From an uncultured Armatimonadetes bacterium (GTDB taxonomy: Bacteria; Armatimonadota; Hebobacteria; Hebobacterales; Hebobacteraceae), in assembly GCA_963716175.1 (NCBI GenBank), contig OY970296.1, positions 1,440,001-1,504,000 on the forward strand: 64,000 nucleotides of DNA, in the 5' to 3' direction. A model generated the notes under the pieces. That model made no database searches. It was not told the origin of the DNA and saw only the letters and a program-made list of their open reading frames with translations. This document shows positions 14,661 through 64,000 of this stretch, in pieces (position 1 is the stretch's first letter; every line of letters begins with the position of its first letter). The position numbers were made by a program, and so were the translations under genes.

Positions 14661-14664
14661 AGCA

Positions 14665-32520: not shown

Positions 32521-32687
32521 TGCATCTGATCGCCCCGAGGACGAGGCCGCCACAAGGCTCTCGCCTATCTCGACGCAACTGACGGTCGCACTCGCCCATC
32601 CCCGCGGCAGGAAGCCGCTTGACCGACTGGCCCTCGCCTGCGACACTTAGGGCCGCCAGCAGGCGGATCGTTAGGCGGGGGGCGCGG

Positions 32688-37262: not shown

Positions 37263-37328
37263 CGGGAAACGGCGTTGATCCGCAGATTACGCAGATTGCC
37301 CAGATGAAAAGGCACGCTGAGGTGGACG

Positions 37329-38633: not shown

Positions 38634-38643
38634 GTGAAGTGGC

Positions 38644-38988: not shown

Positions 38989-39050
38989 AGATTCGAGATC
39001 GGGGAATAGAGAGGTGATGGCGCGGGCGCCGAAGGCGGCCGCGCTGCTAT

Positions 39051-39074
39051 GTAGGGGCGCCATTCATGGCGCCC
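39051..39074 (+). repeat. GTAG-type REP-like hairpin
   Basis: GTAG-GGGCGCCAT-TC-ATGGCGCCC. Confidence 0.6.
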
Positions 39075-39165
39075 TTTTATCATGGGCGTGATGTCCCTAG
39101 GTCCAAAGGGCCGGGATGGCGGCCGAAGGCCTAGCCAAATCACGCCCCTACACAGGAGATGACCA

Positions 39166-39711: not shown

Positions 39712-39808
39712 CGCGAAAACGGCCATCCGCCGATGAACGCAGATGAACGCGGATGACCGGCGTGATCCTTCGGCTTCGCCTCAGGATGACAAGAACAAGG
39801 AGAGATGA

Positions 39809-40947
39809 ATGCCTTTCAACGGTTTGGCAACCTACGACAACTTCGAGGGGATTGGAGAGGATGTCTCCGATCTCGTCGCGTTCTGGCCCCCTTCGAGACC
39901 CCGCTGCTGGAGGTGGTGGGCGGGGCCGATCAGCCGGCCACCAACGTCAAGCACGAGTGGCTGGAGGACACGCTGAACCCGACCACGGATATCACCTCCA
40001 CTGGGGTGGCCTCGGCCACCGGGCAGGGGACACTGACGGTGGCCCATGCCAGCTACTTCCGGGCCGGTGACACTATCCAGCTCGACACGGAAGTGATGCT
40101 GGTGAACTCGGTCTCGGACACCAGCACCATCGGCGTCACGCGCGGCTATGGCGCCACCGCGGCGGCCGCGCACAGCGCGGGCGCGGGGATCACCATCATC
40201 GGCAACGCCGCCCTGGAGGGCGAAGACACCGACGAGGATCGCACCACGCGCCAGGTGCGCAAGTCCAACTACTGCCAGATCCTGAAGGTCGGGGTGAAGC
40301 TGTCTGGCACCGCCCAGGCGGTGGGCTGGATCACCACCGGGGATAAGCTGGCGGACGCCAAGGTGATGCGGCTGCGCGAGCTGCTGCGCGACCTGGAGAA
40401 GACCATTCTGCTGGGCCGCACCGATGTCGCCACCATTGGCTCGGACACCGCGCGGCGCACCATGGCTGGCATCGTCTGCTCGCTGGCCACCAATGTGGTG
40501 AGCTGCGGCACGCTCACCGAGAGCGCGCTGGGCAACCTGCTGCAGTCCTGCTACAACCAGGGCAACCGGGATATGGACCTAATCGTGGCTCCGCCCAAGC
40601 AGAAGCGGATCATCTCCGGCTGGAACAGCAGCCGCATCCACGTCACCAATGAGGCCAATGCCTACCGCAACGTGGTGGAGGTGTACGAGAGCGACTTCGG
40701 CAGCCAGCGCGTGATCATGAACCGGTGGCTGCCCGATGACATGGTGCTGACCCTGGACTCCAGCCGAATCAAGGTGGTGCCGCTGGCGGGCCGGTCTTTC
40801 CGCTATGAGGAGCTGGCCAAAGGCGGCGACTACGTGCGCGGGCAGATCGTGGGCGAGTATACGCTCGAGCTGCGGAACGGAAAGCCCCTAAGCCGGCTAC
40901 AGGCGGAAGGTCAGGAGGGGCAGGGAATCGGCCCCGATGACCACTGA
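39809..40947 (+). pseudogene. SU10/DUF5309-type major capsid protein; frameshift near 39880 and foreign C-terminus after about 40878
   Basis: MPFNGLATYDNFEGIGEDVSDLV (frame of 39809) joins 'LAPFETPLL..HEWLED..NYCQI..RTMAGI..YESDFG..LAKGGD..GEYTLELRN' in the adjacent frame. Confidence 0.8.
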
Positions 40948-42366
40948 CTCCAGCAGCTCGCCCAGCAGGCGCCGCTTCTGCTCAAAGGGCACGTCTGACC
41001 GGAGCAGCTCAGCGAGATCCCGGAAGCGCCGGCGCACGGGAATGGCAGAGGGCCGTCGGCGCTGAGACCCGGCAAGGGCGGCCCGCAATCCCTTCTCCTC
41101 GCGCTCGATGCGAGCCTGCTGTTGACGGTAGGCCGGCTCATCGTAGAGCCCGCGCTCGAAGCCCCCGATCAACCTGCGACGCCGGCCGGGGATCTCCTCC
41201 AGGTCCCGGCGGATGCGGGCCACATCGGGCAGTTCGGCCGGACGGTGGGGCAGCTCCCGCAGTTCCTTGGTGGTGGCGCGGGAAAGAGCGCCCAGAGCCT
41301 CGATCACCAGGTTCTCGGCCTTACGGACGCTGACATAGCTCCCCTTACAGCTATCGAGGTGGCTGGCCTTCGCCGCACAGTCGTAGACACCGTACTCGTA
41401 GGGTCTGGAGTGCCGCCGGTAGCGATGCCAATGGCCAGTCATAGGACCTCCGCACAAGCGGCAACGGAGGATGCCCGAGAGCAGGTAACGCTCGGCGACA
41501 CGCACCCGCTTGAGCTGCCCCCGGCGGTGGGTGAGGATGGCATTCGCTCTCTCCCACACCTCCTTCGAGACCAGGGGCTGATGCTTGCCAGGAAGGAGTT
41601 GCCCGTTCCACGGAATCAGGCCCAGGTAGGTGGCCTTGCGCAGCATCCGGTTGATGTCGGTAGCCGACCAGGCGTTGTAACTGGGGCCCGATTGAGTGAT
41701 GGCAGTCAGGCGGCGCCCGCATTCCTGGGTGCCGACCTGGTCGTGTACATACCACAAGAAGACCTGGGCCACGAGCCGGGCGGCTGACCAGCCCTGGTAG
41801 CGCGGTTCCTGATCCGGGACCAACTGCTTATCCACCATCCGGTATCCGAAGGGGGTTCGGCCCACCCACTCGCCGCACTCGGCCTTGTGACGCATCGCTG
41901 CCTTGACGTTGGCGCCGATCATCTTGCGCACCCGGGCCGAGAAGATGGAGCTGATGCCCAGCAGATCGCGCCCGTAGTCGGGGTCGTCATACTGGGGTTC
42001 CGTGGCGGATCGGAAGGCCACGCCGTAGGCGTCCAGCCGCCGCAGGATCTCGTAGATGTCGCCTTCGTCCCGGCTCAGCCGGTCCAGGCGAAAGACCACT
42101 AAGGCGTCGAAGGGCCGGCCCGAAGGCGGGGGAATCCGGGCGCGGGTCTTGGCGCGGCGGCGGACGTAGGGGAGCTGGGAGAGGATGGCCTGAAGGCCCG
42201 GCCGATACCATTCGGCACCGGTCACGCCCTCATCGGCGTAGATGTCGAGCAGGTCCCACCCATGCGAAACACAGTAGCCGGCGATGGCGCGGCGCTGCAC
42301 CTCCAGCGAGAGGCCCTCGCGGGCCTGGTCGTCGGTCGAGACTCGAACATAAGCCACCGCGCGCAT
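40897..42366 (-). CDS. Large serine recombinase (integrase)
   Basis: 'AYVRVSTDDQ', 'RLDRLSR', recombinase domain, Zn ribbon 'LSGILRCRLCG..YDC', coiled coil. Confidence 0.95.
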   Translation of the reverse strand: MRAVAYVRVSTDDQAREGLSLEVQRRAIAGYCVSHGWDLLDIYADEGVTGAEWYRPGLQAILSQLPYVRRRAKTRARIPPPSGRPFDALVVFRLDRLSRDEGDIYEILRRLDAYGVAFRSATEPQYDDPDYGRDLLGISSIFSARVRKMIGANVKAAMRHKAECGEWVGRTPFGYRMVDKQLVPDQEPRYQGWSAARLVAQVFLWYVHDQVGTQECGRRLTAITQSGPSYNAWSATDINRMLRKATYLGLIPWNGQLLPGKHQPLVSKEVWERANAILTHRRGQLKRVRVAERYLLSGILRCRLCGGPMTGHWHRYRRHSRPYEYGVYDCAAKASHLDSCKGSYVSVRKAENLVIEALGALSRATTKELRELPHRPAELPDVARIRRDLEEIPGRRRRLIGGFERGLYDEPAYRQQQARIEREEKGLRAALAGSQRRRPSAIPVRRRFRDLAELLRSDVPFEQKRRLLGELLESVVIGADSLPLLTFRL

Positions 42367-45701: not shown

Positions 45702-46481
45702 CTACGGTCTGCACACCTTGCAGGGCGCGTATCCTCGCGCCTCAGCTTCCTTCCGTGAGATGGGGACCGAGCTTCGAGCTAAGTGCCGACAGCCTGCCCG
45801 ATGGTACTTCGTGCCCGTTCTCGTGATGTAGACCGTCTTCGCATCAGCGCCGGGCTTCTTCTCTGCAGGCGCGACCGCGGGCCGGTCTTCGCCGCCTTGC
45901 CCTGCCCCGGTCCGCGGTGCCAGGGGAGCGAAGCGCGCCGCGTCGCTCCACATGCTCTCGAACTGGACAGCGAATGCACCAGCTACCGCGGGCTCCCCGA
46001 TGAACACCACCAGGTTCTCATCGTTCCGCTCGATGGCCGCCTTTGTCCAGTTGAAGCTCCCGGTCGCGATGCTTGCACCATCCGCCACGAGAAACTTGTT
46101 GTGCATCAGCCCCGAGTGCGTGTTCACCAGCACAGAAACCCCGGCGGAAAGCAGTCTGTCGCCCTGGGTCCACGTCTGTGCCCCCTGTCCTCGGTCAAGT
46201 ATCACTCTCACCCGCACGCCCCGCTTCTGCGCCGCCACCAGCTCATCAGCCACCGACTCCAGCGAGAAGGTGTAGCAGGCCGCGTCCAGATACATTCGGG
46301 CCGAGCGCGCCAGGTTGGTGAGTGCCCCCTCAGCTCCTCCTCGCGGCGAGAAGAAGACCTGGACATCGGCGCGAGCACCCATCGCGGCCGTCGCCAACAA
46401 CACCAGTAACACCAGCCTGCACAGCACCCGCCGCGCACCTGGCGCCCTGCCCCGCAAATCATGTGCTGCCACGTTCACCAC
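45702..46481 (-). CDS. Secreted Nuc-type phospholipase D nuclease with a C-terminal Zn module
   Basis: 'FFSP', HKD motif 'MHNKFLVAD..TGSFNWT..N.EN'; same C-terminal module as the neighbouring gene. Confidence 0.88.
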   Translation of the reverse strand: MVNVAAHDLRGRAPGARRVLCRLVLLVLLATAAMGARADVQVFFSPRGGAEGALTNLARSARMYLDAACYTFSLESVADELVAAQKRGVRVRVILDRGQGAQTWTQGDRLLSAGVSVLVNTHSGLMHNKFLVADGASIATGSFNWTKAAIERNDENLVVFIGEPAVAGAFAVQFESMWSDAARFAPLAPRTGAGQGGEDRPAVAPAEKKPGADAKTVYITRTGTKYHRAGCRHLARSSVPISRKEAEARGYAPCKVCRP

Positions 46482-50005: not shown

Positions 50006-50674
50006 CTAGCCCGCTTCATCAAAGACCGACAGGGCAATGCCCTCGCGCCCAGCCACACGGCCCAGATCGAGGGCGCGGATTCGCCTTCGGTCCCGGGAAG
50101 CGACGCGGGCGGCTACCCGGATCTCGGCCCGGTTCCCAGGATTGCTGCCCCCAGGACTGTCGTGCCTCGGCGCGCCGCTTGCAGCCGGCGCCCGCTTACC
50201 TCTCCTCACCGCGCGCGTCGTCAGTGCCCTTCTCTGGGTCCCGTCGCGCCCGCTCCCTCCTGGCAGCGATCGCCTCCGCCCGGCTACACGTTCGGCGGGA
50301 AGCACGAAGACAGGTAGGCGCGTCGCTCGAGGTGGCTGCCGAAATTCCCGCTGCCCGTCTTCCCGCACCCGACAGATCCACGCCACGACTCCCACCACGC
50401 GCAGGTCCGCAGCCTTGACGAAGCCGGCGGCATAGGTGGGGTTGTCGGAGATGAGCCCTACCTGTCCTGCCAGCTCGCCGCCCCACCGGTTGACACAAAC
50501 CTTGCCCCCGCGCTCCACCACGACCATATCCCCGAGCTCAGGAAGCGCGGCCCTCCGCACCCCCAGCGCGTCGCCCGGGGTGAGGGTCGGGCTCATGCAA
50601 TCTCCCACGAGGAGATAGACCTCATCGGCCTGGGCTGCGTGCTCTGCGTCACACTCGAAGGTCTGCTGGTTCAT
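50006..50674 (-). CDS. S24/S26 peptidase-like protein without HTH; C-terminus possibly degraded
   Basis: 'VGDCMSPTL.PGD..GDMVVV..LISDNP.Y..VVGVV'; catalytic Ser and Lys appear to be replaced (C, N). Confidence 0.6.
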   Translation of the reverse strand: MNQQTFECDAEHAAQADEVYLLVGDCMSPTLTPGDALGVRRAALPELGDMVVVERGGKVCVNRWGGELAGQVGLISDNPTYAAGFVKAADLRVVGVVAWICRVREDGQREFRQPPRATRLPVFVLPAERVAGRRRSLPGGSGRDGTQRRALTTRAVRRGKRAPAASGAPRHDSPGGSNPGNRAEIRVAARVASRDRRRIRALDLGRVAGREGIALSVFDEAG

Positions 50675-50874
50675 GGCTCTACCCCACACCTCATCGCCGT
50701 CGCTCGCGCCCGGTCCTTGAGCGCCAGGCCCGCCAACGCCTCCCAGGCCCGCAGCTCATCAGCTCGCAGAGGCCGGAGCTGGCGAGAACCACACCCGCAC
50801 CGCCGGTCCCCCTCCATCACCAGGCCGCATCGCAGGCAGCGCAGCATCAGTGCCCGGTCAGTCAAGGCGATCAT
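50671..50874 (-). CDS. Small zinc-ribbon protein
   Basis: 'CLRCG..CGCGS'; overlaps both neighbours. Confidence 0.5.
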   Translation of the reverse strand: MIALTDRALMLRCLRCGLVMEGDRRCGCGSRQLRPLRADELRAWEALAGLALKDRARATAMRCGVEP

Positions 50875-51973
50875 GGCCGCCTCCGTCAAGCGCCCTGCTC
50901 ACATAGTCCGCCGCGTTGTCGGCGAGGTTCTCGCGCGCCCGGTCGTAGCGCTCGGTGGTGCGCGGGTCCTGGTGGCCCATCGCGTACTGCACCCGGCGCA
51001 AGCTCGCCCCCGCCTCGAGCGCCAGGGTGGCGAAGGTGTGCCGCAGGGCGTGGGGGTGAACCCGCCCCGCCACCTCCGGGGGGAGCGCCGCCCGGGCCCA
51101 CTTGCCCACGATCAGCGCCACCGCCTGGGTGGTGAGGGGCCGCTCATGGCAGAGCCAGCACCCCTGCTCGCCCCGTCCATACTTGCGCACCGGGCAGAAC
51201 ACCGGCGCCTCGGGCCCCGATCGCTGCCGCCCGGCCGTCTCGAGCCAAGCCGCCAGCGCCTCCCAGGTGGGGCCGGCCAGCTTGGCCTGCCGCACCCGTT
51301 CACCCTTGCCCCGGATGGTGGCCACCCGGAAGCCCTGGTCTTCGCCCAGGTCGCCCACCCGCAGGCCCGTCAGCTCGGCCGCCCGCAGGCCGTTGCGCAG
51401 CAGCAAGGCCAGCAGCGCCCGGTCGCGCAGCGCCGGCAGCTCCTCGCCCTGGGGGGCCGCCAGCAGCGCTCGCCCCTGGTCGGGGGTCAAGCCGATGGTG
51501 GGCGAGTGATCGCCGTTCATCTGTAGCCCCTTCAGCCCCGCCGCCGGATTGTCCGGCCGGAAGTTCCCCAGGTGCAGCTCCCGTAGCACCGACCGCACCG
51601 CGGCCATGCGCCGGTTCACGCCGGCCGGCGAAAGCCCAAAGCATTCCCGCAGGTGGGCCCGGAACCCGGTCAGGTCGCCCCGGTCCACCTCACGCAGCAG
51701 GCGCAGCGCCTCCCCCGGGTCGGCCCATGCTTCCTGGAGCAGCGCCGATCGCTCCGCCTTGGACAAGCGCCGCCACTCCCCCGCCGGCAGCACCCGCCCG
51801 GTCTCTTCTCCCCGCAGATAGAGCAGCAGGTGGGCGAGGTCCGTACGGTAGGCGCGCTTGGTGTGCTCCGAGAGCTGCCCGGCCAGCACGCAGGCGAGAG
51901 GATCGCGTGCCCCCAGCTTCCTGCACCCCGCCCGGGTGATCTCAGCGCCCGCTTTCACCAGCTCGCCGGCCAT
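50858..51973 (-). CDS. XerC/D-like tyrosine recombinase
   Basis: 'RDRALL..GLRAAEL', 'GKG', 'HPHALRHTFAT', 'MGHQDPRTTERY'. Confidence 0.93.
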   Translation of the reverse strand: MAGELVKAGAEITRAGCRKLGARDPLACVLAGQLSEHTKRAYRTDLAHLLLYLRGEETGRVLPAGEWRRLSKAERSALLQEAWADPGEALRLLREVDRGDLTGFRAHLRECFGLSPAGVNRRMAAVRSVLRELHLGNFRPDNPAAGLKGLQMNGDHSPTIGLTPDQGRALLAAPQGEELPALRDRALLALLLRNGLRAAELTGLRVGDLGEDQGFRVATIRGKGERVRQAKLAGPTWEALAAWLETAGRQRSGPEAPVFCPVRKYGRGEQGCWLCHERPLTTQAVALIVGKWARAALPPEVAGRVHPHALRHTFATLALEAGASLRRVQYAMGHQDPRTTERYDRARENLADNAADYVSRALDGGGHDRLD

Positions 51974-52539: not shown

Positions 52540-53562
52540 TCAGGGCGAGGATTCGCCGGTTCGTTGTCGCCTTTGCCGTCCTGCCCCTCCTGATCGCTTG
52601 GAGGCTGCGGGAACCGGCTGATCCGACCCTCGGACCGCGACAACCTGGTGCATCTTGATGAATGCAGCCCCGCGATGGTTCTCGATTATCTTGATAGCTG
52701 GCGTTTGGGTAAAGGTGTGCGTCGCTGCATGGAACACAGAGAGAACCAGGTCCTGCAGTTTCTGGTCGTCTTCCAAGTTCCGCACGGTTAGACCGATTTC
52801 CAACGCCTCATCCCGCGAGATATGTCGAGAATGGCTTTTGTACCGGCTGTGATTGGCGAGGGTCCCCGCTGCTCGCCGCGCTTTCTCTTCTGCATCCGCG
52901 GAGCCAACGAACATGTAGGTCTGCAGCCAGGACCTGACAAGCTCCTCAGAAAGGTTCTGTGCGTTCTTGCACTGCATCAGGAGCGCCGGACCATACTGCT
53001 CCAGAATCGGAATCCATGAGCCGAGCCTATCGGGGTCTCTGCACTCCTCCTGGGCATACCGGAACTGGTCGAGGATCGCTTGGGCCGGTGCCTGGACGAA
53101 GCCAGTCGGGGAGCCCATGAGCATCTGCGGATCGACGGGACCCAGGAAGGAATGCTTCCCCATGTAGATGGAGTCTGCACCGCACACCAACATGGTTGCC
53201 GCTGACATCGCCAAGGAGGGCACGAATGCGCGGATGTGCTTGAAGCGGGACCTGAGGTAGCGCATTACGGCATCCGCCGCCTCTGGCGAGCCCCCAGGGC
53301 TATGAATGATCAGATCGAGTTCATCGGTGTCAATCTCGTGTATGACCTCCATCATGCCCTGGAGGTCTTCATCGGTTATGGTCAGAAACTGGGGTCCGAT
53401 CTCCGGGTGCTGCGTGAAGGCCGTGGCGTAGAGGATAACTGCTCGCCCCGTGTGCTTATGAAGCAGCGAAAGGTACTTGCGTCGGACAACGTCCTGAGCA
53501 GACTGACCGTTCGTCGGGTGCGCCTTACCTATCTCTTGGAGCAACTCCCCCCACGTCGGCAT
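52540..53562 (-). CDS. SDH/S49-family ClpP-fold serine protease
   Basis: 'LDLIIHSPGG', 'AMSAATM', 'LGPVDPQ', 'SHSRHI', 'KIIEN'. Confidence 0.9.
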   Translation of the reverse strand: MPTWGELLQEIGKAHPTNGQSAQDVVRRKYLSLLHKHTGRAVILYATAFTQHPEIGPQFLTITDEDLQGMMEVIHEIDTDELDLIIHSPGGSPEAADAVMRYLRSRFKHIRAFVPSLAMSAATMLVCGADSIYMGKHSFLGPVDPQMLMGSPTGFVQAPAQAILDQFRYAQEECRDPDRLGSWIPILEQYGPALLMQCKNAQNLSEELVRSWLQTYMFVGSADAEEKARRAAGTLANHSRYKSHSRHISRDEALEIGLTVRNLEDDQKLQDLVLSVFHAATHTFTQTPAIKIIENHRGAAFIKMHQVVAVRGSDQPVPAASKRSGGAGRQRRQRTGESSP

Positions 53563-53572
53563 GGCACGTGCC

Positions 53573-53785
53573 TTAGGTCCCCGCCGTGTTCGCGCTGCCC
53601 AGGACCTTCACGACTCGCCGATACCCCCGGTACTTCCTCGCAGCAGCCCGGGCACCGACGTAGGCCGTATGCGCAGCAACATAGGTCTCAACGCCGGTGC
53701 GCTGGCGGGCCCGCTGCAACATCACTCGTCGCAATGACTCGAGATCGGTGCCTTGCGTTGCCACCTTGCTGTCGCGCTTATCCAC
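53573..53785 (-). CDS. Small basic hypothetical protein
   Basis: AGGAGG RBS; ends 10 bp before the protease start. Confidence 0.45.
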   Translation of the reverse strand: MDKRDSKVATQGTDLESLRRVMLQRARQRTGVETYVAAHTAYVGARAAARKYRGYRRVVKVLGSANTAGT

Positions 53786-54754
53786 TTGCAGGCCCCTCCT
53801 GTCCGTTTTCCGGCCATTCTATAGTAACTGGTTCCGGTCCTCTCGGCAACCCAAAGAGCCCACACCGCGTCATCAGGGCCGCCCGTAGTCTATGCGCCCG
53901 CCGCCGCGTCAACCCGCCTCTGCCGGGCCACGGAGGCCGCCAGCACGGGAACCGCAGGAACGTTACGAGCCTGGTGCGAAGGTTGACTATCCCAAGGCCC
54001 TGTCAGTGGGAAATCTCCCGGCGTGTTCAGCCACACGCACATGCTCGTCGGGATCGTCGCGGCCGCGGGTTAGGGGCTGCGGCTCAGCATCGCAGAGTCG
54101 TGGGAGCAATGGCCATATCCGCCGCTCGCGAGCGCCGGGCACTATCCCCTCCTCCTGCACCCACTTGGCCATCGTGCCCCCGGCCCCCCTCGCCGAGTCG
54201 CACAATGGGCTATGCCTGGAAAGCGGCCGTCTCCTACACTCGAGCGCGATCGTGTCAGCACCGCTTGTACACTCCCCAAATCGCCGAAGTAAAATGCCCC
54301 ACCCTCGGTAGCCCGACGGTGAGAGTAAGGCGCACTCAAGAGGCATTACAGCGGGAAGAGGTTATAGCACTAACCTCTTGATTGCTGTAACCTGTTGGCG
54401 GGCCAGAGTGAACGCCAGGCAGGAACAGGAAGGCTCTGCGGCACACTGGCCCACCCGCGGACGCTGCAGATAGGCCGAGGGGCATCTGTGCTCTCCACGC
54501 AACGGTAGACCAAGACGCAGGGTCCACCCACAGGCCGCGCGTGAGACCGCAGGCTCGCGTTGTCGGCCGCCGGGTTAGACTGTACCACGCGTAGTCGCCC
54601 CATCTGTACCACCTGATGTTCGGGGGTGGGTACCACCCCATAGTCGGGGGTGGGTACCACCCGGCCGCCGGGGGTGTGGACCACCCCTGAGGCGGTGCTG
54701 GGTCGTTGCCACAAAGAATCCCCTTCTGACCTGGGAGACCGGTCAGGAGGAGAC

Positions 54755-56296
54755 ATGGAGCGACTCAGCGTGCATCTCATCGTGGACATCGTGTATCGGT
54801 TGCGACGCGGCCAGTCCGTGCGGGCGATCTGTCGGGATCTGGGACACTCCCGGGGGACGGTCCGCCGCTATCGGGAGCTGGCGAAGCGGAGAGGCTATCT
54901 GGACCCTTCCCGGCCCTTGCCCGAGCCGGGAGAGGTGCTGGCCCAGCTGGAGCCAGCCCTCTCGGCCCCGGGCAGCAATGTCTCGGGCGTGGAGCCCTAT
55001 CGGGAAGTGGTGGCGGGGCTGCTGGAGCAGGGGGTGGAGATGGTGGCGATCCACCAGCGGCTGGGCCGCCACCATGGCTACCAGGGCAGCTACAGCTCGG
55101 TGCGGCGCTTTGTGAGGCGGCTGCGGCCCCGGCACAAAGAGGTGGTGGTGCGGATCGAGACGCCGCCCGGCCAGCAGGCGCAGGTGGACTTCGGCGGGGC
55201 CGGCAAGATGCGGGACCCAGCCACGGGGAGGCTGCGGCAAGCCTGGTGCTTCGTGATGACACTCTCCTACTCCCGACACCAGTATGTGGAGTTCGTCTTC
55301 GACCAGCGGATGGAGACCTGGATCGGCTGCCACCGGCGCGCCTTCGAGAGCTTTGGGGGCGTCCCCAAAGAGCTGGTGGTCGACAATCTCAAGGCGGCGG
55401 TGCTGCGGGCGGCGCTGGATGATCCCCGGCTGGCGGAGCCCTACCGGAAGCTGGCCCAGCACTACGGCACCCTGGTGCACCCCTGCCGGCCGGGCATGCC
55501 CCAGCACAAAGGCAAAGCCGAGAATGGGGTGCACTACGTGCAGCGCAATCTCCTCGCCGGCGAGGGAGAGCTGGACCTGACCCAAGCGAATCGCCTGGCG
55601 AAAAGCTGGGTGCTGGAGGTGGCCGGCGTGCGTGATCATGGCACCACGCACGTGCCGCCCCTGCGGCGCTTCCGAGAGGAGGAGCAGGCCGCCCTCTTGC
55701 CCCTGCCCGAGGAGCCCTTCTCCCTGCGGGAGGTGCGTTCGGTGACGCTGCACCGGGACTGCCACGTGCAGGTGGAGGGCAGCTACTACTCGGCTCCCTT
55801 CGCCTACGTGGGCCAGCGACTGGACGCCTACCTCTACCAGCACACGGTGCAGCTCTATGACGGGGTGACGCTGCTGGTGACTCATCCTCGCGCGATTCGC
55901 CCCGGCCAGCGGATGACCAAGCTGGAGCACTACCCCGAGGAGAAGTCCTTCTATCTGATCCACACCCGGGAGTACTGCCAAGCGCAGGCGGGGCGGATTG
56001 GGCCCCACTGTGGGCAGGTGGTCAAGCAGCTCTTGGAGGAGCGGCCCCTGGATCGGCTGCGCAGTGTCCAGGGGCTGCTGGGGCTGGCGCGGCGCCACTC
56101 GCCGGCGCGGCTGGAGGCGGCCTGTGCCCGGGCCCTGCACTACGGCGATGCCAGCTACCGTCGCCTCAAGCGCATCCTGGAAGCGGGCCTGGACCAGGTG
56201 CCCCTGGAGCCGGGGTCGGTTCAGCCCCAGTTGCGCCTCTACGAGTACGCCCGGCCCATGAGCGCGTTCTTCGGCGAGGAGGCGGGCACATGCTGA
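54755..56296 (+). CDS. istA: IS21 transposase
   Basis: 'ETPPGQQAQVDFG', 'FGGVP..VDNLK', 'KGKAEN', 'YYSAP'. Confidence 0.95.
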   Translation: MERLSVHLIVDIVYRLRRGQSVRAICRDLGHSRGTVRRYRELAKRRGYLDPSRPLPEPGEVLAQLEPALSAPGSNVSGVEPYREVVAGLLEQGVEMVAIHQRLGRHHGYQGSYSSVRRFVRRLRPRHKEVVVRIETPPGQQAQVDFGGAGKMRDPATGRLRQAWCFVMTLSYSRHQYVEFVFDQRMETWIGCHRRAFESFGGVPKELVVDNLKAAVLRAALDDPRLAEPYRKLAQHYGTLVHPCRPGMPQHKGKAENGVHYVQRNLLAGEGELDLTQANRLAKSWVLEVAGVRDHGTTHVPPLRRFREEEQAALLPLPEEPFSLREVRSVTLHRDCHVQVEGSYYSAPFAYVGQRLDAYLYQHTVQLYDGVTLLVTHPRAIRPGQRMTKLEHYPEEKSFYLIHTREYCQAQAGRIGPHCGQVVKQLLEERPLDRLRSVQGLLGLARRHSPARLEAACARALHYGDASYRRLKRILEAGLDQVPLEPGSVQPQLRLYEYARPMSAFFGEEAGTC

Positions 56297-57060
56297 CCCA
56301 TCCCCTCTTGCCCAAGCTCAAGGAACTGCGGCTCTCCGGGATGCTCCAGAGTCTGGAGGAGCGGTCGGCGCTGGCTCAGGAGCAGCAGCTTTCCCCAGTG
56401 GAGTTCCTGGCCCTGCTGATCGAAGACGAGCTGGAGCGGCGCCATCAGCGCACTCAGGCGCGCCGCCAGAAGCAGGCCGGCTTCGAGTACCTCAAGACCA
56501 TCGCCGACTTCGACTTCGCCGCGGTGCCCACGCTCGATAGGGCCTTGGTGCTGGACATGGCCACCTGCACCTTCATCACGGCCAAGGAGAACTGGTTGAT
56601 CTGCGGCCCGACCGGCGTGGGCAAGAGCCACCTGGCGACGGCCATCGGCTACGAGGCGATCCGGCGGGGGATGAAGGTGCTCTCCTTCGCCACCCACCGG
56701 CTCCTCGCAGAGCTGCTCGCGGCGCGGGCCGACGGGACCCACCACAAGCTGCTCGCCAAGCTGGCCTCGGTGGAGCTGCTCATCATCGACGACTTCGGGC
56801 TGCGGCCTATCAGTGTGCAGGGAGCGGAGGATCTCTACGAGCTCATCGCTCGCCGCTACGAGCGCGGCTCCATCCTGCTCACCTCCAACCGCTCCCCGTC
56901 GGAGTGGACGGAGGTCTTCGGGGACGCGCTCTTGGCCTCTGCCGCGCTGGACCGGCTCACCCACCACGCCCGCCTGACCGTGATCACCGGCGAGAGCTAC
57001 CGCCAGCGCCATCGCCGAAAGGAGGTGAAGCCGACTCCCAAACCGACGAGAAAACAGTGA
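56290..57060 (+). CDS. istB: IS21 helper ATPase
   Basis: 'GPTGVGKSHLA', 'LLIIDDFG', 'TSNR', 'LDRLTHH', 'GESYR'. Confidence 0.95.
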   Translation: MLTHPLLPKLKELRLSGMLQSLEERSALAQEQQLSPVEFLALLIEDELERRHQRTQARRQKQAGFEYLKTIADFDFAAVPTLDRALVLDMATCTFITAKENWLICGPTGVGKSHLATAIGYEAIRRGMKVLSFATHRLLAELLAARADGTHHKLLAKLASVELLIIDDFGLRPISVQGAEDLYELIARRYERGSILLTSNRSPSEWTEVFGDALLASAALDRLTHHARLTVITGESYRQRHRRKEVKPTPKPTRKQ

Positions 57061-57610
57061 TCGTCGATCACTGCCCGCAACGACCCGGAATCACGAAAAG
57101 GTGGTACCCATCAGGCGGCGGCCGGTGGTACAAATGGGGCGGCTATTGACACGCGTCAGCGGCATGGCCGATACAGCGGAGGGCGTTGCTGGGAAGCGGA
57201 GAGGCAGTGAGTCTGAGCGTGGCAGCGCGACCGCGCAACCACCGGAGTGGGCGCCCGCCAAGCTCGGCACCCCTATGCGTCGGTTGGGGGCGGCGGCCCG
57301 CATCGCACTGATTGGCACACTGCTGGCGAAGTGGTCACATGTGCGGCTGCGGTGTGTGGGAGGGAGAGGGCGCAGGGCGGCCGCGCTCGTCGAGGTTGCG
57401 GGCCGGTAGCGCGGCCAATTCGGAGACAGTCCCTGTTTTGACGGCGCGCTGGCTGTGCGCGGGAGGGAAGCACGGAAGGCGCGAGATGGTGAGGGTTGGG
57501 CTAGCACCCTGAGAGGAACGACAAGGCATCCTCGACGCGGCCGCGTCTCTGGTACCTCTGACCCACTTGATGGCACTAGCAGGGATTCAGGCCGATGCAG
57601 CAACGCGACC

Positions 57611-58783
57611 TCAGGCCCCGGGGATCTGAATGCCGCTGATCACGCCTTCGTGCCATGTCTTCCCGTCAATCACCACAGAGCCGATAGGCTCTGTATCTGG
57701 CTCAATGCCCGGATTGCCGGCGAAGGTGAGATGTCGGAGCTGCGTTACAACGTCCGACAACGTCTGGTCGACTTCGAAGGTCGAGTGGACGTTTGGGTCG
57801 AAGCGCATCCTTGCCGACAGGACACAGTCAGCCGTTGGCTCCAGAACTAGGCTTCCACACGGGATTCGCTGCCTCAACTCGAAGTCCGGAAGCAACAGGT
57901 AGTGCGGACGACCGTACTCCTGTAGCGCGTCGGCGAGGCGAAGTAAGAAGCCTAGAGGGTTAGCTTCGAAACCCAGAGTTGTACTGGCAGCATGTGAGCT
58001 GATCGCACAGCACACAAGCCACCAGATGGCGCGCTCACGGTCAGTGGCGGCGTTCTTCTCGGCATGCCGGCATATCTGAATGGAAGTGGGGAGCCCATGG
58101 TTGCTCTGACCCTTCTCGGCCGACACAAGGAACTCGCCAGCACTGAACTGCTCACAGTGGCTGCAGTGCGGCCCCGGGGCCAATCGCAGCCCGGGCATGC
58201 ACGACCCAGGCATAGCAGGCTCGTAGTACCGTCGCGCGGTATCTACAACACTCGCCGTATATGCAAAGCAGTAGCCAAGGTCGTGGAGGAGAGCGGCCCT
58301 CTCACAGGCATCGTCGATGTCACTAGAGGTCAGGACTCCCGGTACCTTGCGCACCTCCATAACCTTCTTGCACCCCGTCAGGAAGGCATCGTCAAACTTC
58401 GGGAGCAGAACGCGAATCTGGGCCATCAGTACGGCCACTGAGAAGGCATGGACAACGTGGTCTCGATACGCCTTGCTGTGGCCAAGTAGCCGGCCAAAAT
58501 AGAGTGCCAACTCGGTGTGCACAAGCTCACGTGAAAGCCGGACCACTTGTGGTGACTGGGAGAACCATTTGTGACACATCATGCATAGGGCTTCGTACGC
58601 GCCGGCTATCTCGCTGCAGCGTTCGCGCCCATACACCGCCTTGACTGCGAACTCATACTTGGGCTCCAATACCCACGGCGTCGAGGTGCCCATCATCGAA
58701 GCCAACGGACCCCCAGGCGGGGCCTCTCTGTTCTTCAGATGAAGGCAGTAGCTCACGGTGTTGTCCAGCGTCAGTGTTGCCAC
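57611..58783 (-). CDS. HD-superfamily phosphohydrolase (HD-CE-like) with an intact metal motif
   Basis: 'YRDHVVHAFSV', 'LLHDLGY', 'NHG', 'AISSH', 'LLRLADALQEYGR'. Confidence 0.8.
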   Translation of the reverse strand: MATLTLDNTVSYCLHLKNREAPPGGPLASMMGTSTPWVLEPKYEFAVKAVYGRERCSEIAGAYEALCMMCHKWFSQSPQVVRLSRELVHTELALYFGRLLGHSKAYRDHVVHAFSVAVLMAQIRVLLPKFDDAFLTGCKKVMEVRKVPGVLTSSDIDDACERAALLHDLGYCFAYTASVVDTARRYYEPAMPGSCMPGLRLAPGPHCSHCEQFSAGEFLVSAEKGQSNHGLPTSIQICRHAEKNAATDRERAIWWLVCCAISSHAASTTLGFEANPLGFLLRLADALQEYGRPHYLLLPDFELRQRIPCGSLVLEPTADCVLSARMRFDPNVHSTFEVDQTLSDVVTQLRHLTFAGNPGIEPDTEPIGSVVIDGKTWHEGVISGIQIPGA

Positions 58784-58798
58784 TTGGCCATCTCCCCT

Positions 58799-59794
58799 CT
58801 AGGTTGAGAAGACTTCCTTCTCCAGCATGTCGAGTATGGTCTGTGGTGCTATCTTGGCAATCCCTGCCGCAGTGAGCTGGGGGTCGTGCCCGCTACGGCC
58901 GCCTCCAAAGGACTGTTCCGCATCAGGGCTGATGTCCAGCATAGTGTGAGAGGCATCGGAGTGCAGCACTGTGTAGTGGAGCCTGCCGCCAAACACCCGT
59001 TTCAGATGGTCAGACCAGACCGCGTACTGGATCTCCGGTCTCTTGAAGTAGTCCTGCAGTGCGGTGAAAAGACTGCCTTCCTGGAGCAGTTCCACACCAG
59101 GACTCTGGTATGCCCGCGGCACTTTGTTGACCACGAACAGCGAACGGCCTTGGCAGCCAGGGAACTCCAATGCCATGAGGTTCACGTCGGTGTAAACTGC
59201 AGCAAAGGATGCTGGCTCCGGTACGAGAACCCAGATCAGCACCGAGTGGGCCCTCGCCTCCGTGTCGTCTAGCTGTGTGGCGCAAAGTGCAAGGTGCGTC
59301 ATGAACCCCATCCCCGGTGGACAGTCGAGGATAGCAAGATCGAATTCTCCAGACTCGCGAAGCTTGGCAATCAGTCGCTGAACACTTGCCCGCACAGAGC
59401 GCGGGTCGTACCAGATGGCCGACATGAGGTTGAGCTTCCGGTTCTTCTCGTCAATGCGGAACTCATCTCCGGCTAGTGGCGGAACCAGCCAGCCGTCGCG
59501 ACCCAGCCACGATGGGAGGACGGAGACGTTGCCGTGGAAGCCCCCGGAAGGCCGAGCCCGAGCCTTCTGCCACTGCTCACATCCTCGCGCGTAGTCAAGC
59601 AGTACCTCGTTGAGGGACATCTCGATAGACTGGACCTTCTCCAGTCCGGTCATGGCGCGAATCCCAGGACCCATCAGATCAAGCTCAATGATGACAGCTT
59701 TTCGCCCGCGTTTCGCCATACCGTCTGCTAACGCGAGGGCGAGCGTCGTCTTACCAACACCTCCTTTGGACGACACCACGATGGCCGTGTACAC
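58799..59794 (-). CDS. MinD/ParA-family ATPase
   Basis: Deviant Walker A 'SKGGVGKTT', 'ELDLMGPG', 'ILDCPPG', 'VVNKV'. Confidence 0.85.
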   Translation of the reverse strand: MYTAIVVSSKGGVGKTTLALALADGMAKRGRKAVIIELDLMGPGIRAMTGLEKVQSIEMSLNEVLLDYARGCEQWQKARARPSGGFHGNVSVLPSWLGRDGWLVPPLAGDEFRIDEKNRKLNLMSAIWYDPRSVRASVQRLIAKLRESGEFDLAILDCPPGMGFMTHLALCATQLDDTEARAHSVLIWVLVPEPASFAAVYTDVNLMALEFPGCQGRSLFVVNKVPRAYQSPGVELLQEGSLFTALQDYFKRPEIQYAVWSDHLKRVFGGRLHYTVLHSDASHTMLDISPDAEQSFGGGRSGHDPQLTAAGIAKIAPQTILDMLEKEVFST

Positions 59795-59815
59795 GACGGT
59801 ATTCCCCCTTCGCCT

Positions 59816-61900
59816 CTAGGTTAGACTCTGAGCGAGTTCCCTGCAGCGCTTCGCAAGCCGCGCCGTCAGCTCGCGCCGTGACTGACGCTCCAGCCCGTCC
59901 AAGACCGCGACTAGGCTCCTCAGAGCAGTGACCGTGGATTCTGCGAGTCGCCGTCGCACCCCTTCCTGGTGGGCCAGATTACCCAGGAAACCCCCTGTGA
60001 GCTGAAGCAAAGCGTCAACAGTTCGTTCGTCGGAGCTGCTCAGGGTGCCAACGACGCGCGTCGCTGTTCTGAGCCAAGCATCTGGGGGCGACGGCGACCA
60101 GTACATGGTGAGTTGGCGCAGGAGACGTATGGTGTCAGATGCCGGGGCTCGCTGGATGTAGGCGTTGACGGCAGGCTCCACGCACTCGTCAATGACGCTT
60201 CCTCGTTCAGCGTCCGCCGGCAACATGCGGGCAAGTATGAGGATAGCGCTCAACCGCTCTGTCTCCTGAGTCACCGTCTCGCTGCTCCCGACCCCGGCTG
60301 CAAGACGCTGGATGAGCTCTCGGAGGACTTCCTCGGGATTGTGCTCCTCCCGTACTGCGCCATGGAGAGCGATAACCAATGCCGCAAGCTCTTCAGCTAC
60401 GGCCGACCGCAGCAACTCAACGACGCGACGCCTCAAGCTGGGGCAACCTTTGCGCCCAAGCACGGTCGGCCGACCTAGTATGGTCTCTGCCGCTACGGTT
60501 TGCCAGGCACTGCTGTCATTGCACCAGTCTGTGAAGAACTCATCAGAGAGATCGGGAGGCAACTCGCAACGTCCGCTTCTGATAAGGTCTGCTATCGCAG
60601 CCGCAGCCTGCCTACCGAATGCCTCTTCTCGCTTCTCAGAATACCGTCTGGGACTAACTGCAAGCCTCACGGCGGACCGGTGCAGCGCCCTGCTGGCCCT
60701 TGCTGTCTTGACAGCCGCGGATCGCAACGAGTCCCAATCCCACGACTCGCCACTACAGAGAACTGCCGTGAGCGGGTCTGGGCTATCCTTTGGGAGCGCG
60801 TCGCACATTTCTTGTGGCGCTATGTAGTTCACTATCGCCCACTGACAGCTCGCCCGGAACAAGCTCACCGGCGCGTCATTTGCAGTCAGTAGTCTGCGTA
60901 GAACGACGACACGTTCCTGGTTACGAGTTCGGCAAGACGGCCATCGGACAAGCTGCCCCCGCGGGAACCATTGCTTGACCTGATCTTCTCGCCCAGGGTG
61001 CTCAACCCAGGAGAGCCTGGCAGAGACCCGTCCGAGTCCGACCTCAGTTGATCCCTGGCATACAGCGTCAAGGTATCGAGTCAACCACTCCTCCGCCTCG
61101 CGCCGACGAGGCTCTGGTGCCCACCACTTGACAAGCAGTCGCCAACCACCACGTTCGTCTGGCGACTCGCGCAGAACCTTGACGTCTCGAATGCATAGGT
61201 GTGGCAGCATGAGCCACTCCGGGACGGCCGGCCGCCGCCCTGCCGCCAGAGCTACCGCCTCCCAGCGATGCACGCCGGTATCCAGGAGGTTGCCGAACAC
61301 CAGCGCCGCGCCGATCAAACGACATCGGATTCGCTCAGGACGCCAGTCGTGGACCTGCGCGATATCGGATAAGGAGACCACCGTTATCAGCGACGCCAGG
61401 ACGGCCGCCTCTTCGTCAGAGAGGTTGAGGTTTGCACCATTCGCGAGGACGAAATCGGTTGCGGCACATCGCTGCTCTTCGTCTGAGCCCTCTGGGCGCA
61501 GCATGGCACCGATGTCGTGTAGATAGCAGAGGACGCCCAGGATCATGGTCTCAATCGGACTAAGGCCGAGATCCGGATCAGTGCCCTCTGGTGCCTCGAC
61601 CGAAGCCACAGCCTTCAGCGCCCGTGAGTGCTCTGCCAGGAACACATCCAGTCTGCGCGACATGGAAAGGCTGTGGCGCTGGCCGAATATGTGGCTGATC
61701 TCTGGTGGGACAGAGAGCGCTTGCGGAACGCCTTCTCCGCTGAGCCGATCCGCGAGGTACAGCTTCAATGAGTGGCTGCTGAACCAGTCATTGGCCGAAC
61801 GCCAGTCCCCACGGTCGCCCTCCTGGCGTCCCAGGCACTCGCGATCCAAGAGCCGCCGGAACAGCGGATTCTGCTCGCGCAGTGCCGCGGTTCTACTCAT
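59816..61900 (-). CDS. Degenerate HD-CE-like domain fused to a helical C-terminal region
   Basis: 'RHS', 'E..ILG..CYLHDIG', 'IRCRLIGAALVFGNLLD..R', 'H..I.DV'; start uncertain (ORF open to 62059). Confidence 0.7.
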   Translation of the reverse strand: MSRTAALREQNPLFRRLLDRECLGRQEGDRGDWRSANDWFSSHSLKLYLADRLSGEGVPQALSVPPEISHIFGQRHSLSMSRRLDVFLAEHSRALKAVASVEAPEGTDPDLGLSPIETMILGVLCYLHDIGAMLRPEGSDEEQRCAATDFVLANGANLNLSDEEAAVLASLITVVSLSDIAQVHDWRPERIRCRLIGAALVFGNLLDTGVHRWEAVALAAGRRPAVPEWLMLPHLCIRDVKVLRESPDERGGWRLLVKWWAPEPRRREAEEWLTRYLDAVCQGSTEVGLGRVSARLSWVEHPGREDQVKQWFPRGQLVRWPSCRTRNQERVVVLRRLLTANDAPVSLFRASCQWAIVNYIAPQEMCDALPKDSPDPLTAVLCSGESWDWDSLRSAAVKTARASRALHRSAVRLAVSPRRYSEKREEAFGRQAAAAIADLIRSGRCELPPDLSDEFFTDWCNDSSAWQTVAAETILGRPTVLGRKGCPSLRRRVVELLRSAVAEELAALVIALHGAVREEHNPEEVLRELIQRLAAGVGSSETVTQETERLSAILILARMLPADAERGSVIDECVEPAVNAYIQRAPASDTIRLLRQLTMYWSPSPPDAWLRTATRVVGTLSSSDERTVDALLQLTGGFLGNLAHQEGVRRRLAESTVTALRSLVAVLDGLERQSRRELTARLAKRCRELAQSLT

Positions 61901-62178
61901 CGTGGACAGGGCTTCGTCAGACAGCCCCTGTCCCGTATGTTCCACAGTTGCCTCCGCAACTGAAGAGACTCTGGGCACCCCACGTCCGGCACGGTGCCAC
62001 CGCGCGAACAACCGCCTGGATAGGGCCGCCTTTGATCTGCCGCCACATGCCCGCAGCACAGGCTCTCAGGCGTTCAGACCGCTTCTGTCTACCACTTACA
62101 GACAGCACCTTACAACCCTGCAGGGCCTACCCTTGGCCGCCAGAGTGGTTCGCCGGCCGGTGTCTGACCCCTCGCGCC

Positions 62179-62607
62179 CTAGTCGCAAAGTACGTGCCAG
62201 AGCAGGCAGCAATTGTCGCACTCTGGCCCAGCCACACCGGCGGCCGACCTCCAGTCACCGAGCGCGGTCTCGAAGCATGTCTTGGCGATCACGTCGCGGT
62301 ACAAGCCGAGAAGAGAACGAGCGGGCCGCTCGGCTTCTGGGGCGGTGCGTAGCTGAGAGAACACCCAGGAGAACACCTGCTCCATCCTCGGTGGGCGGTG
62401 GCCCAGTATGTCAGTGGCGAAGTGTTCGCGAACATGCCGGGCCACGGTTTCCAGGTCGGCTGTAAGGCCGACATTCCTCGCCCGCTGGAAGAAATCCGTA
62501 TCCGATGGCGGCCGCCTCGTGGGCGCAACCTGCCGGGAAGCCGCCTCGGCGACTGTGGCACCCGCGCCAAACACCACGACGAGCGGCCCGGCAAGAGGCT
62601 CGATCAC
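62179..62607 (-). pseudogene. Truncated SIR2-like protein (N-terminus only)
   Basis: 'VVVFGAGAT..PP.D.DFF'; ends before any TxNYD or HG motif. Confidence 0.6.
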
Positions 62608-62698
62608 AGGTCACTCCCATCCGTCGTGCGCCCTTCGAGCGCGGATGCGAGACTGGAGCTAATCGGGCGCGTTCGCCGCTCTTTGGTGACAGCCCAGA

Positions 62699-63322
62699 TC
62701 ACGATGCCGGCCGTTCCTGCCGGAGCTTGCGCCAGCCTGGGACGCTCCGAGGCACCTCTTTCCCTTCCGCCAACCAGCGGCGTCCAGCAGAGGTGATCTC
62801 CCAGACCCCTCGCTTGGAGTTGGCACTCAGCAGGCCCTCCTTGACGAGGTAGAAGCGCACAAACGCCGCCCGATTGCGCCAGGTAGGTTCGCCGCTGCTA
62901 ATCGGATGTTGGTCGTGTGGAGTGAGAGAACTCGCCATTAGCGCGCCGACCTTGCCCACTACGGCCGACTTGTCGGCGGCACCGCCCAACTCAACCAAAG
63001 CCTCCAGTATCGGTCGGCAGAAAGCCGCGTGGGGGGTTAGTAGGCCCCGCGGTGTGCGAGCGCCCTTTGCCACCTGATTGCTCTGCCGTTGGGTCTTCTT
63101 CGGACGAGCCGAGCCGGAGATCAGCCGTTTCCATTCTTTCTGCTTTGCACGCAGGTCAGCGAGGAACCCTTTGACCGCCTCGGCTCGCGCTGTGAGCGCG
63201 CGCACGGTGGCGCTATCGCCGCGTCGGAAGGCCTGGGCGCCGGCCTCGCGGATTGCCGCCAGCGCCTTAGTGACCTCGCTCAACAGCAGCTCGAATGCGT
63301 CCGCCACGTCCTTGTGTCGCAT
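62699..63322 (-). CDS. Coiled-coil plus Mrr N-terminal winged-helix protein
   Basis: 'F.RPILEALVELGG', 'D...SSGEPTWRNRAAF.R..LVKEGLL..S.RGVWEITSAGR'. Confidence 0.8.
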   Translation of the reverse strand: MRHKDVADAFELLLSEVTKALAAIREAGAQAFRRGDSATVRALTARAEAVKGFLADLRAKQKEWKRLISGSARPKKTQRQSNQVAKGARTPRGLLTPHAAFCRPILEALVELGGAADKSAVVGKVGALMASSLTPHDQHPISSGEPTWRNRAAFVRFYLVKEGLLSANSKRGVWEITSAGRRWLAEGKEVPRSVPGWRKLRQERPAS

Positions 63323-63345
63323 GGTCCCCTCTCTCTTTGCAGGTG

Positions 63346-63774
63346 TCAGGCCATCCCGGTCTCCACCCCCATCCACGCCACCAACTGGACCTCGCCCTCG
63401 TCAATGACTGGCAGCGGCTGCGGCGCTTCGTAGGGGCGGAGGCCGAGCTCGCGGACCTTCTGGACGAGGGCCCGCGAGACGCCCTGCGCGTCGAGTTCCT
63501 CGGAGTCCAGCACTTCGCGCAGTTGCTTCGCCGCGCGGCCGCCGTGAAGGGCCACCAACAGGAGGGGGACGGCCCGGCCGCCGTGGCGCCGCTTCCAGGC
63601 CTTCTGAAGACCCGCCCGGCCGGGCTGCCGCGCTGCCTCCACGATCACGACTTCCAGCGGCTGCCTTCCCTGGCCAAGGACAAGCCCGCGCGGACGCAGG
63701 CCTTCAGCCCCCTCCAGCGTCACAGGGCGCAGTTCGTGGTCAGCCAGGAACTCCGCTCGCTCACTGAACGGCAC
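63346..63774 (-). pseudogene. Chimeric remnant: N-terminus of an Eco57I-like methylase joined to the C-terminus of a helicase-like protein
   Basis: 'LEVVIVEA..P...LQKAWKRRHGGRAVPLLLV' followed abruptly by 'PYEAPQPLPVIDEGEVQLVAWMGV'; family assignment from recall. Confidence 0.5.
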
Positions 63775-63799
63775 TTGGCCGTGTCTCCCCTCTCATGCC

Positions 63800-64000
63800 T
63801 CACCCGTCCGCCAGGCCGCCATAAGATGTCGACAGTCTGGCCGGACTCTCTGGGAGCCCTGCTCTCGCTCTCATGGCGATGGGTTCACTGAGGTTGTCGC
63901 CAGTCCTGCCATACAGGACGGTCTCCGGCGCTTTCGCGTCGTCGGGCACGAAGTCGCGCAGTTCGTTCGTGGGGATGTTCGCGCGCTTGTCTTTGTGGCG
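63800..64000 (-). pseudogene. Truncated type III RM Mod-like methyltransferase N-terminus
   Basis: Reads RHKDKRANIPTNELRDFVPDDAKAPETVLY, then loses similarity and stops at 63800. Confidence 0.55.

Follow-up and report, generated by a model that had tools for sequence, protein, structure and literature searches.

What does a ParA/MinD-class ATPase do when it is encoded between a degenerate HD-CE-like protein and an HD-type protein whose predicted metal ligands are complete, in a part of a bacterial genome rich in mobile and defence genes? The question is raised by a cassette of three minus-strand genes, here called A, B and C, in a 64,000-nucleotide stretch of DNA (the window) from an uncultured Armatimonadetes bacterium (assembly GCA_963716175.1, contig OY970296.1, positions 1,440,001 to 1,504,000; numbering below starts at the first nucleotide of the window). 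A preliminary description, made by a model from the letters of this DNA, took the cassette for a candidate undescribed defence system. We put the probability that it is a rare, horizontally acquired conflict (immune-type) module at about 0.5, because of its operon packing, the recurrence of the triad and of the B-C pair, the conserved residues, the fold of C, the defence-rich context, the patchy distribution, the foreign composition and the links of B-type proteins with conflict systems. The three domain assignments of the preliminary description hold, A being a degenerate HD-CE-like protein with a tail, B a ParA/MinD ATPase and C a predicted intact HD hydrolase, and its remark that it knew of no name for the system agrees with the finding that neither A nor C is named by any model of PADLOC 2023, Pfam, NCBIfam or PHROGs. 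The B-C core and the C-type HD family are undescribed in these four resources; the pairing of an NTPase switch and a hydrolase effector is a known theme.

A, B and C are one operon-like, translationally close-packed unit. The list of open reading frames (ORFs) has the co-oriented trio at the coordinates, and with the gaps of 21 and 15 nucleotides, that were first given for it, and at both junctions a TAG stop is followed by a purine-rich Shine-Dalgarno-like box and then a GTG start (Table 1). A GGAGG box lies just 5′ of the GTG at 61945, and this codon is at least as probable a start for A as the ATG at 61900, from which the residue numbers used here for A (H76, H128 and others) are counted. 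The recorded gene calls begin further 3′, for A at Met186 of the long frame, past the HD motif (P0005, 562 amino acids), and for B 3′ of the P-loop/Walker A (P0006, 284 amino acids). Comparison with the homologues shows the longer N-termini of both proteins to be real. The recorded starts are then too late and conceal from annotation the HD motif in A and the Walker A in B, and with them both domains, which is a practical problem. Scans for promoters and terminators gave counts not above those in shuffled sequence, Rfam has no match at E ≤ 0.1 in positions 53000-64000, and there is no tRNA gene close to the cassette.

The lower guanine plus cytosine (GC) content that had been noticed for the three genes is also borne out. 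It is 0.595-0.631 over 57-62 kb as against about 0.65-0.71 in most of the window, and at third codon positions (GC3) it is 0.70 in C, 0.69 in B and less than 0.68 in A as against 0.83-0.91 in core genes and the nearby IS21 element. Because both measures are low, the cassette is compositionally foreign.

Had the three genes not been found together elsewhere, it would have counted against the preliminary description. It is not refuted on this ground, since the full triad is present on a distant metagenome contig, locus L002. There an hpt fragment is followed in order by homologues of A (28% identity), B (39%) and C (34%), all three recorded on one contig of 9038 bp; the first 28 codons of the C homologue are visible at the locus, and its start overlaps the stop codon of the B homologue by ATGA. 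A near copy of the triad is held by contigs from a sediment sequencing run, X5, that span positions 57295-62349 at about 87-90% DNA identity. The B-C pair is present in two further genomes, and so at 4 of the 10 C-family loci with visible surroundings (the source genome, L002, L018 and L019). At L018, in genome G286, the ParA-like gene overlaps the C-type gene, and 5′ of them the contig breaks off within a larger gene, of which the helical C-terminus is present. At L019, in genome G255, the pair closes a set of four genes (Table 1), of which the one encoding a 934-amino-acid helical protein represents no known family. This four-gene set may be a larger relative of the A-B-C cassette. Comparison of A by hhalign and BLAST with the upstream proteins of L019, L018 and L006 gave no similarity. 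To judge from the sequences, which are kept at 20-40% identity, the B-C partnership is ancient.

The other six C-family loci (L021, L006, L007, L020, L022 and L023) are diverse. Just 312 nucleotides are visible upstream of the gene at L021, and at L007 the C-type gene is alone. At L006 it directly follows the gene for P0133, which has a phosphoribosyltransferase-like ‘ILILDDAVASGRTA’ motif and no Pfam match. L022 encodes a 714-amino-acid C-type fusion with a 971-amino-acid partner, near a DNA methylase, and P0133 has no similarity to the upstream protein of that locus. At L023 the C family is used as the output domain of a two-component system, the receiver domain being supported by Pfam.

Members of the C family are found in none of 14 genomes from the same family as the source, in 2 of 40 relatives, in 8 of 400 further genomes from the phylum, and in none of 30 other genomes of the class of G286. 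This is the patchy pattern typical of accessory genes. Members of the A family were found in none of 400 other genomes from the phylum. A tblastn search with A and C gave no match in 72,556 plasmid or 50,697 phage records, and in the genome contigs and viral contigs scanned for patterns from the alignments of A and C there was no relative of either.

Gene C has the product (P0003) that would do the chemistry, and it has no match in Pfam, NCBIfam, PADLOC 2023 or PHROGs. A word-indexed search finds one relative for it, and an exhaustive phmmer search of 1.84 billion representatives yields 5 proteins at E ≤ 0.001. With members found in genomes the alignment comes to 14 sequences, at 16-30% identity to C, and through it the residues of the motifs R-D-H-x-x-H, H-D, H, H and D are wholly or almost wholly invariant. 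H167, D168, Y171, H229, H264, P276, L281, D285 and R292 are the same in all 14, and H109 and H112 are present in all 13 members that cover that column. The full H..HD..H..H..D ligand set that had been ascribed to C (H109, H112, H167-D168, H229, H264 and D285) is thus a property of the whole family. The Pfam HD model PF01966 is weakly touched by 5 of the 14 members (best E 0.0022), in each case below the cut-off, with C itself unmatched.

An AlphaFold model of C made from the 14-member alignment has a predicted local distance difference test score (pLDDT) of 76.4 and a predicted template modelling score (pTM) of 0.82. Foldseek finds nothing for it in the PDB at E ≤ 0.001. In a wide search with VIA-align most of the 50 listed rows are of the HD/PDEase superfamily, with Z from 10.1 to 6.2: PPX/GppA domain III (Z 10.1; the top row of the search has this Z, a root-mean-square deviation of 3.2 and 162 aligned residues), PDE1B (9.1), YhaM (9.0), the HD-GYP protein PA4781 (8.1), SAMHD1 types (7.2 and 6.8) and Cas3-HD (6.3). 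It has to be counted against our reading that Z scores of 10 or less are in a range common for helical proteins, and that the HD fold call leans on the motif and the uniformity of the hits. Uniform structural hits together with an invariant motif do make the HD assignment of C safe, and we predict from sequence and model that C is a catalytically intact HD/PDEase-superfamily phosphohydrolase. No HD subfamily stands out among the structural matches listed, at sequence identities of 8-19%. With HD-GYP proteins, class I PDEs, PPX/GppA, YhaM and Cas3-HD, C shares the ligand pattern and the fold matches; unlike the HD-GYP phosphodiesterases it has no GYP-type motif. As with SAMHD1-like anti-phage dGTPases/dNTPases, its HD hydrolase might be an effector that depletes nucleotides, and it differs from them in lacking a PADLOC or Pfam match and in having a structural match to them that is middling. 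C also carries an additional N-terminal helical region and a beta-rich C-terminal region (residues ~294-386). The clusters of the ESM Atlas nearest to homologues of A and C are HD-CE or HD (0.88-0.93), which is a lead only.

The properties of the C family bear directly on the main alternative explanation, in which C is a second-messenger phosphodiesterase that B and A localize or regulate, and the position in an island is incidental. The L023 member is fused to its receiver and has a GAF-histidine kinase as neighbour, the C-type gene of L018 is followed 55 nucleotides downstream by a receiver-domain gene, and the N-terminus of the 509-amino-acid member at L006 is receiver-like by eye only, with no match in Pfam. 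Among the structural neighbours of C are, at Z 7-9, cyclic-nucleotide PDEs and HD-GYP proteins, and the H..HD..H..H..D pattern is that of binuclear HD phosphodiesterases. On the other hand the HD-GYP model of Pfam (HD_5, PF13487) matches none of the 14 members of the family, and no gene for a receiver, a cyclase or a sensor kinase is in or beside the cassette of the source genome or that of L002. The sporadic distribution, the foreign composition and the defence-rich surroundings in the source genome (G000) and in G255 also speak against a signalling module, and we consider it unlikely that this is what the cassette is. The defence and signalling readings could both hold for an immune system in which a nucleotide signal is used or destroyed.

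Gene B is the member of the cassette for which known families give most guidance. It scores above the Pfam cut-offs for ParA (53.4 bits, cut-off 27.1), AAA_31 (49.9, cut-off 27) and CbiA (35.7, cut-off 25.4). Its Walker A, SSKGGVGKT, is of the deviant xKGGxxGK[ST] type with both the signature and the catalytic lysine present. K10-GGVG-K15, D39, D157-x-P-P and N223 are invariant in all four B-type proteins, and since these are the Walker A, switch and Walker B residues, B is predicted to be an active ATPase. The KGGxxGK[ST] sequence, the switch aspartates, a DxPPG Walker B and an NK motif are shared with ParA, MinD and Soj. B is ParA-class and not ORC/Cdc6-like. Among its own features are an insert of about 70 amino acids past switch I and a C-terminal extension. 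Its best non-self relative is P0007 (39% identity, E 4e-47), and the next match is at E 1e-9. No NCBIfam equivalog model reaches its cut-off for B, the widest match there being a KGGVGR-variant ParA-like ATPase, below cut-off.

How does B stand in relation to ATPases whose role is known? MinD proper has a basic membrane-targeting C-terminal helix, which the four B-type proteins are without in a crude hydrophobic-moment test, their C-terminal helices being amphipathic and neutral or acidic; there are no min genes near the cassette. MinD/ParA-like domains are described by Kaur et al. (2020, PMC7159879) as common but inactive components of NTP-dependent conflict systems. B differs from the domains as presented there in that it keeps both lysines, stands alone and looks active. 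A PADLOC candidate model, PDC-M28B, matches 45 residues of B (2.5e-8) and 155 residues of the L018 B-type protein (3.3e-16), whereas A and C have no PADLOC match at E ≤ 1. The match to the PDC-M28 candidate system is partial and confined to the B component, with no other PDC-M28 component matching, and a literature search found no description of PDC-M28.

The class of B also suggests a module for the maintenance or partition of the island, with B as a ParA motor and with A or C as an unorthodox adaptor in place of ParB. B is a bona fide ParA/MinD-class protein, its best PHROGs match is ‘ParA-like partition protein’ (A and C are unmatched there), its relatives on plasmids carry the annotation ParA, Soj or RepA, and the cassette lies among recombinases, an integrase and an IS21 element. 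ParABS partition involves a ParB-type partner and centromere repeats, and neither is found at the cassette. As had been claimed of its surroundings, there is no ParB-type domain, and no helix-turn-helix or ribbon-helix-helix family, in A, C or the scanned neighbouring ORFs, and near the operon there are short two-copy repeats only, not iterated centromere-like ones. The identity of B to the plasmid proteins is 26-31% over about half of its length, A and C have no relatives in the plasmid and phage records searched, an adaptor would have no need of the full catalytic HD site of C, and the L002 cassette follows a housekeeping gene, hpt. A partition role is accordingly judged very unlikely.

B and C taken together might instead be a metalloenzyme and its maturation factor. 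On this view B, a SIMIBI metal-insertion ATPase comparable to CooC or Mrp/NBP35, would supply metal to the binuclear site of C, which would be an oxygenase or a metabolic HD enzyme, and A would be accessory. The top Pfam match of B is to the Mrp/NUBPL-type ‘ParA’ family, the H..HD..H..H..D pattern is rich in ligands, and the sole PDB sequence match of a smaller C profile, weak at E 0.08, is PhnZ, an HD oxygenase. The PhnZ match is lost with the larger C profile, which has no match in the PDB at threshold. The Mrp-type match spans the P-loop only (residues 5-55), the four B-type proteins have no conserved cysteine motif (in two of them T or S stands in place of the cysteine of DCPPG), and no metabolic genes are conserved around the B-C pair. 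There is little to recommend a maturation pair, and we hold it to be quite improbable.

Gene A, the large partner of the pair in the cassette, consists of an HD-CE-like domain of about 300 amino acids at its N-terminus and an all-helical tail of about 400 amino acids; the long helical tail was part of the preliminary description and is present here in a model that is poor (pLDDT 49.6, pTM 0.35) and nearly all helical past residue ~400. In the protein scan the Pfam model PF24391 (HD-CE) gives 24 bits against a cut-off of 27, at residues 126-202 of the 747-amino-acid frame, and in a six-frame search 27.2 bits, at model positions 8-55 of 263. The match is limited to positions 8-65 of the model, which hold the H and HD motifs. 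Compared with the HD-CE proteins of PF24391, then, A is at or below the cut-off over less than one quarter of the model and has lost the later ligands, while C is unmatched. The sole distant homologue of A is P0131 (28% identity over 512 amino acids, E 2e-45). R75-H76, H91 and H128-D129 are retained in both, and V174-V175-S176 and G203-N204 stand in both at the sites where later ligands are expected, these columns being assigned by HD-domain motif spacing and not by confident structure (pLDDT 49.6). The claim that A keeps HD and has ‘VV’ and ‘GN’ where ligands should be therefore extends to its one relative. By its sequence A is without a complete HD ligand set and is predicted to be non-catalytic. 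Because the substitutions are the same in P0131, the loss is an old one that has been maintained, which is what selection on a pseudoenzyme would produce. In the ESM Atlas P0131 is nearest to HD-CE clusters (0.88-0.89), and the Atlas model of its residues ~26-303 superposes on HD-type folds; both are leads only. That A and C are close paralogues was considered and rejected, an hhalign comparison of A with the C family having aligned the HD motif alone, at a probability of 6%.

The cassette is part of a longer region, from about 32 kb of the window onward, that is mobile and defence-rich (Table 1). At its edge is a TIR-STAND-TPR gene that is likely to be an NLR-type immune gene. The preliminary description had placed the cassette in an island among SIR2, Mrr-N and restriction-modification remnants. 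Of these the Mrr_N remnant is confirmed and a restriction-modification context is found just past the window end; for SIR2 there is no Pfam or PADLOC match among the window ORFs scanned. The 142-amino-acid ORF just upstream of A is unmatched in Pfam and PADLOC and does not significantly resemble the L019 SIR2 domain. It may underlie the SIR2 call and, if so, it is a fragment. The nearest methylase to the operon, which itself consists of A, B and C only, is the type III Mod at a distance of about 10 kb. This Mod is divided between two overlapping ORFs, one matching positions 78-576 and the other positions 604-982 of the same PADLOC MTase_III model, and to judge from the sequence it is probably frameshifted (L008, 10515-13414); the adjoining Res looks intact.

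Table 1. Location of the cassette, of C-family loci in other genomes, and of neighbouring features in the window.
Feature	Sequence	Coordinates	Strand	Description
Gene A, longest open frame	window	59816-62059	minus	747 aa
Gene A	window	59816-61945 (GTG start) or 59816-61900 (ATG start)	minus	709 aa or 694 aa
A-B junction	window	59795-59815	minus	21 nt; A stop TAG, Shine-Dalgarno-like AAGGGGGAA, B start GTG
Gene B	window	58799-59794	minus	331 aa, GTG start; ParA/MinD-class ATPase
B-C junction	window	58784-58798	minus	15 nt; B stop TAG, Shine-Dalgarno-like AGGGGAGA, C start GTG
Gene C	window	57611-58783	minus	390 aa, GTG start; predicted HD/PDEase-superfamily phosphohydrolase
Four-gene set	L019 (G255)	884-14683		1414-aa ThsA-like SIR2-TPR-PIN, 934-aa helical, ParA-like, C-type HD; then HmaC/DUF499
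P0133 and C-type HD	L006 (G024)	47-4529		P0133, 994 aa, directly 5′ of 509-aa C-type HD; IS21 copy follows
Kinase and C-type HD	L023 (G221)	5338-9215		GAF-GAF-histidine kinase, then receiver + C-type HD protein, 555 aa
TIR-STAND-TPR protein	window	32619-35117		832 aa; TIR_2, DUF7779, many TPR models; weak PADLOC bSEFIR match
Prophage remnant	window	35796-40947		terminase large subunit, SPP1-type portal, SU10-type major capsid protein
Large serine recombinase	window	40897-42366	opposite to prophage genes	
PLD nuclease (DrmC-like)	window	45702-46481		
S24 peptidase	window	50006-50689		
Tyrosine integrase	window	50858-51973		
SDH-type serine protease, ClpP-like	window	52540-53562		between integrase and IS21; no PADLOC match
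IS21-family element	window	54556-57151		complete; IstA 54650-56296, IstB 56290-57060
142-aa ORF	window	62179-62607		just upstream of A; begins with ‘LVVVFGAGA’-type motif, as SIR2-like proteins do
Mrr_N-only remnant	window	62699-63376		
GmrSD-like gene, DnaB-like helicase, type III Res, type III Mod	just past window end			
aa, amino acids; nt, nucleotides.

With such neighbours the cassette might be thought decaying, non-functional cargo of the island: the Mrr_N-only ORF and the split Mod are remnants, and IS21 has inserted about 460 nucleotides downstream of C. The direct repeat CGCGT (5 bp) borders the IS21 copy on either side, a 24-nucleotide tandem repeat lies inside its left end, and an X5 contig joins 54555 directly to 57152, which is an empty IS21 site. 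Because of the empty site and the direct repeat, the insertion is taken to be recent, and it breaks no credible gene. A fourth gene downstream of C was considered in the form of a 223-amino-acid ORF that crosses the junction left when IS21 is removed, and was rejected; it is rich in Ser, Ala, Pro and Arg, and its GC by codon position is 0.65/0.69/0.64. The element lies outside the genes of the cassette, and the sole ORF that it interrupts is thus non-coding in composition. All three frames of the cassette are intact, the catalytic residues are kept across loci at 20-40% identity, and the X5 relative covers the whole cassette at about 88-90% DNA identity. Decay is scarcely credible on this evidence.

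Several points weigh against a conflict module, besides the caution on structural scores given above. The upstream proteins of L018 and L019 have no detectable similarity to A, so that A is not constant. Obvious defence genes are missing from two of the four B-C loci: at L002 the 860 nucleotides visible upstream contain hpt, and at L018 a receiver-domain gene and an aminotransferase lie downstream. That receiver gene, 3′ of the C-type gene, and the receiver fusion beside the GAF-histidine kinase of L023 point to signal transduction. The lack of a PADLOC match for A or C, which extends to every locus, fits novelty, and it fits a non-defence function as well. For the other two B-C loci, those of the source genome and of G255, the neighbourhoods are defence-rich, from which we infer support for a role in defence. 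A literature search returned no named defence system of ParA plus HD in titles and abstracts among the matches listed, and a search for ‘HD-CE’ returned unrelated medical papers only.

If the cassette is a conflict module, its core would be B directly followed by C, with a large upstream partner that varies and that in this lineage is A. Large variable helical proteins often serve as sensors of immune systems, and A would be a non-catalytic sensor or scaffold. ParA/MinD ATPases bind and release their partners as sandwich dimers whose formation depends on ATP, and B would be an ATP-dependent dimerization switch that acts as they do. HD-fold enzymes with the H..HD..H..H..D set hydrolyse phosphoesters in a metal-dependent manner, their substrates being nucleotides, cyclic nucleotides or nucleic acids; C would be the effector, and would cleave a phosphoester of a nucleotide, a nucleotide signal or a nucleic acid. 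For an interaction of A, B and C, and for substrate, trigger and effect on phages or plasmids, we infer by analogy from the behaviour of their families. The abortive-infection role and the nucleotide-degrading effector of the preliminary description are likewise proposals. A bolder proposal, which we put forward tentatively and with some doubt, is that this is an unrecognized immune architecture, in which an active ParA/MinD switch gates a new HD/PDEase effector, a fast-evolving large helical partner, which in this lineage has taken on a dead HD-CE domain, perhaps as a decoy or as a sensor of the substrate of the effector, detects the invader, and the same HD family doubles as a response-regulator output. 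If that were true, two-component signalling and anti-phage nucleotide or phosphoester chemistry would be linked through one enzyme family.

ParA/MinD-class ATPases are best known from the partition of chromosomes and plasmids and from the placement of the division site. Should the cassette protect from phages or plasmids, a defence architecture built on a switch of this type would be added, and a first function would be given to an HD/PDEase family that is outside Pfam, NCBIfam, PADLOC and PHROGs. A and C would then also be a clean pair of pseudoenzyme and enzyme for the study of dead catalytic domains as sensors. Should the role be in signalling instead, the cassette would still define a new family of HD output domains together with a conserved ATPase partner.

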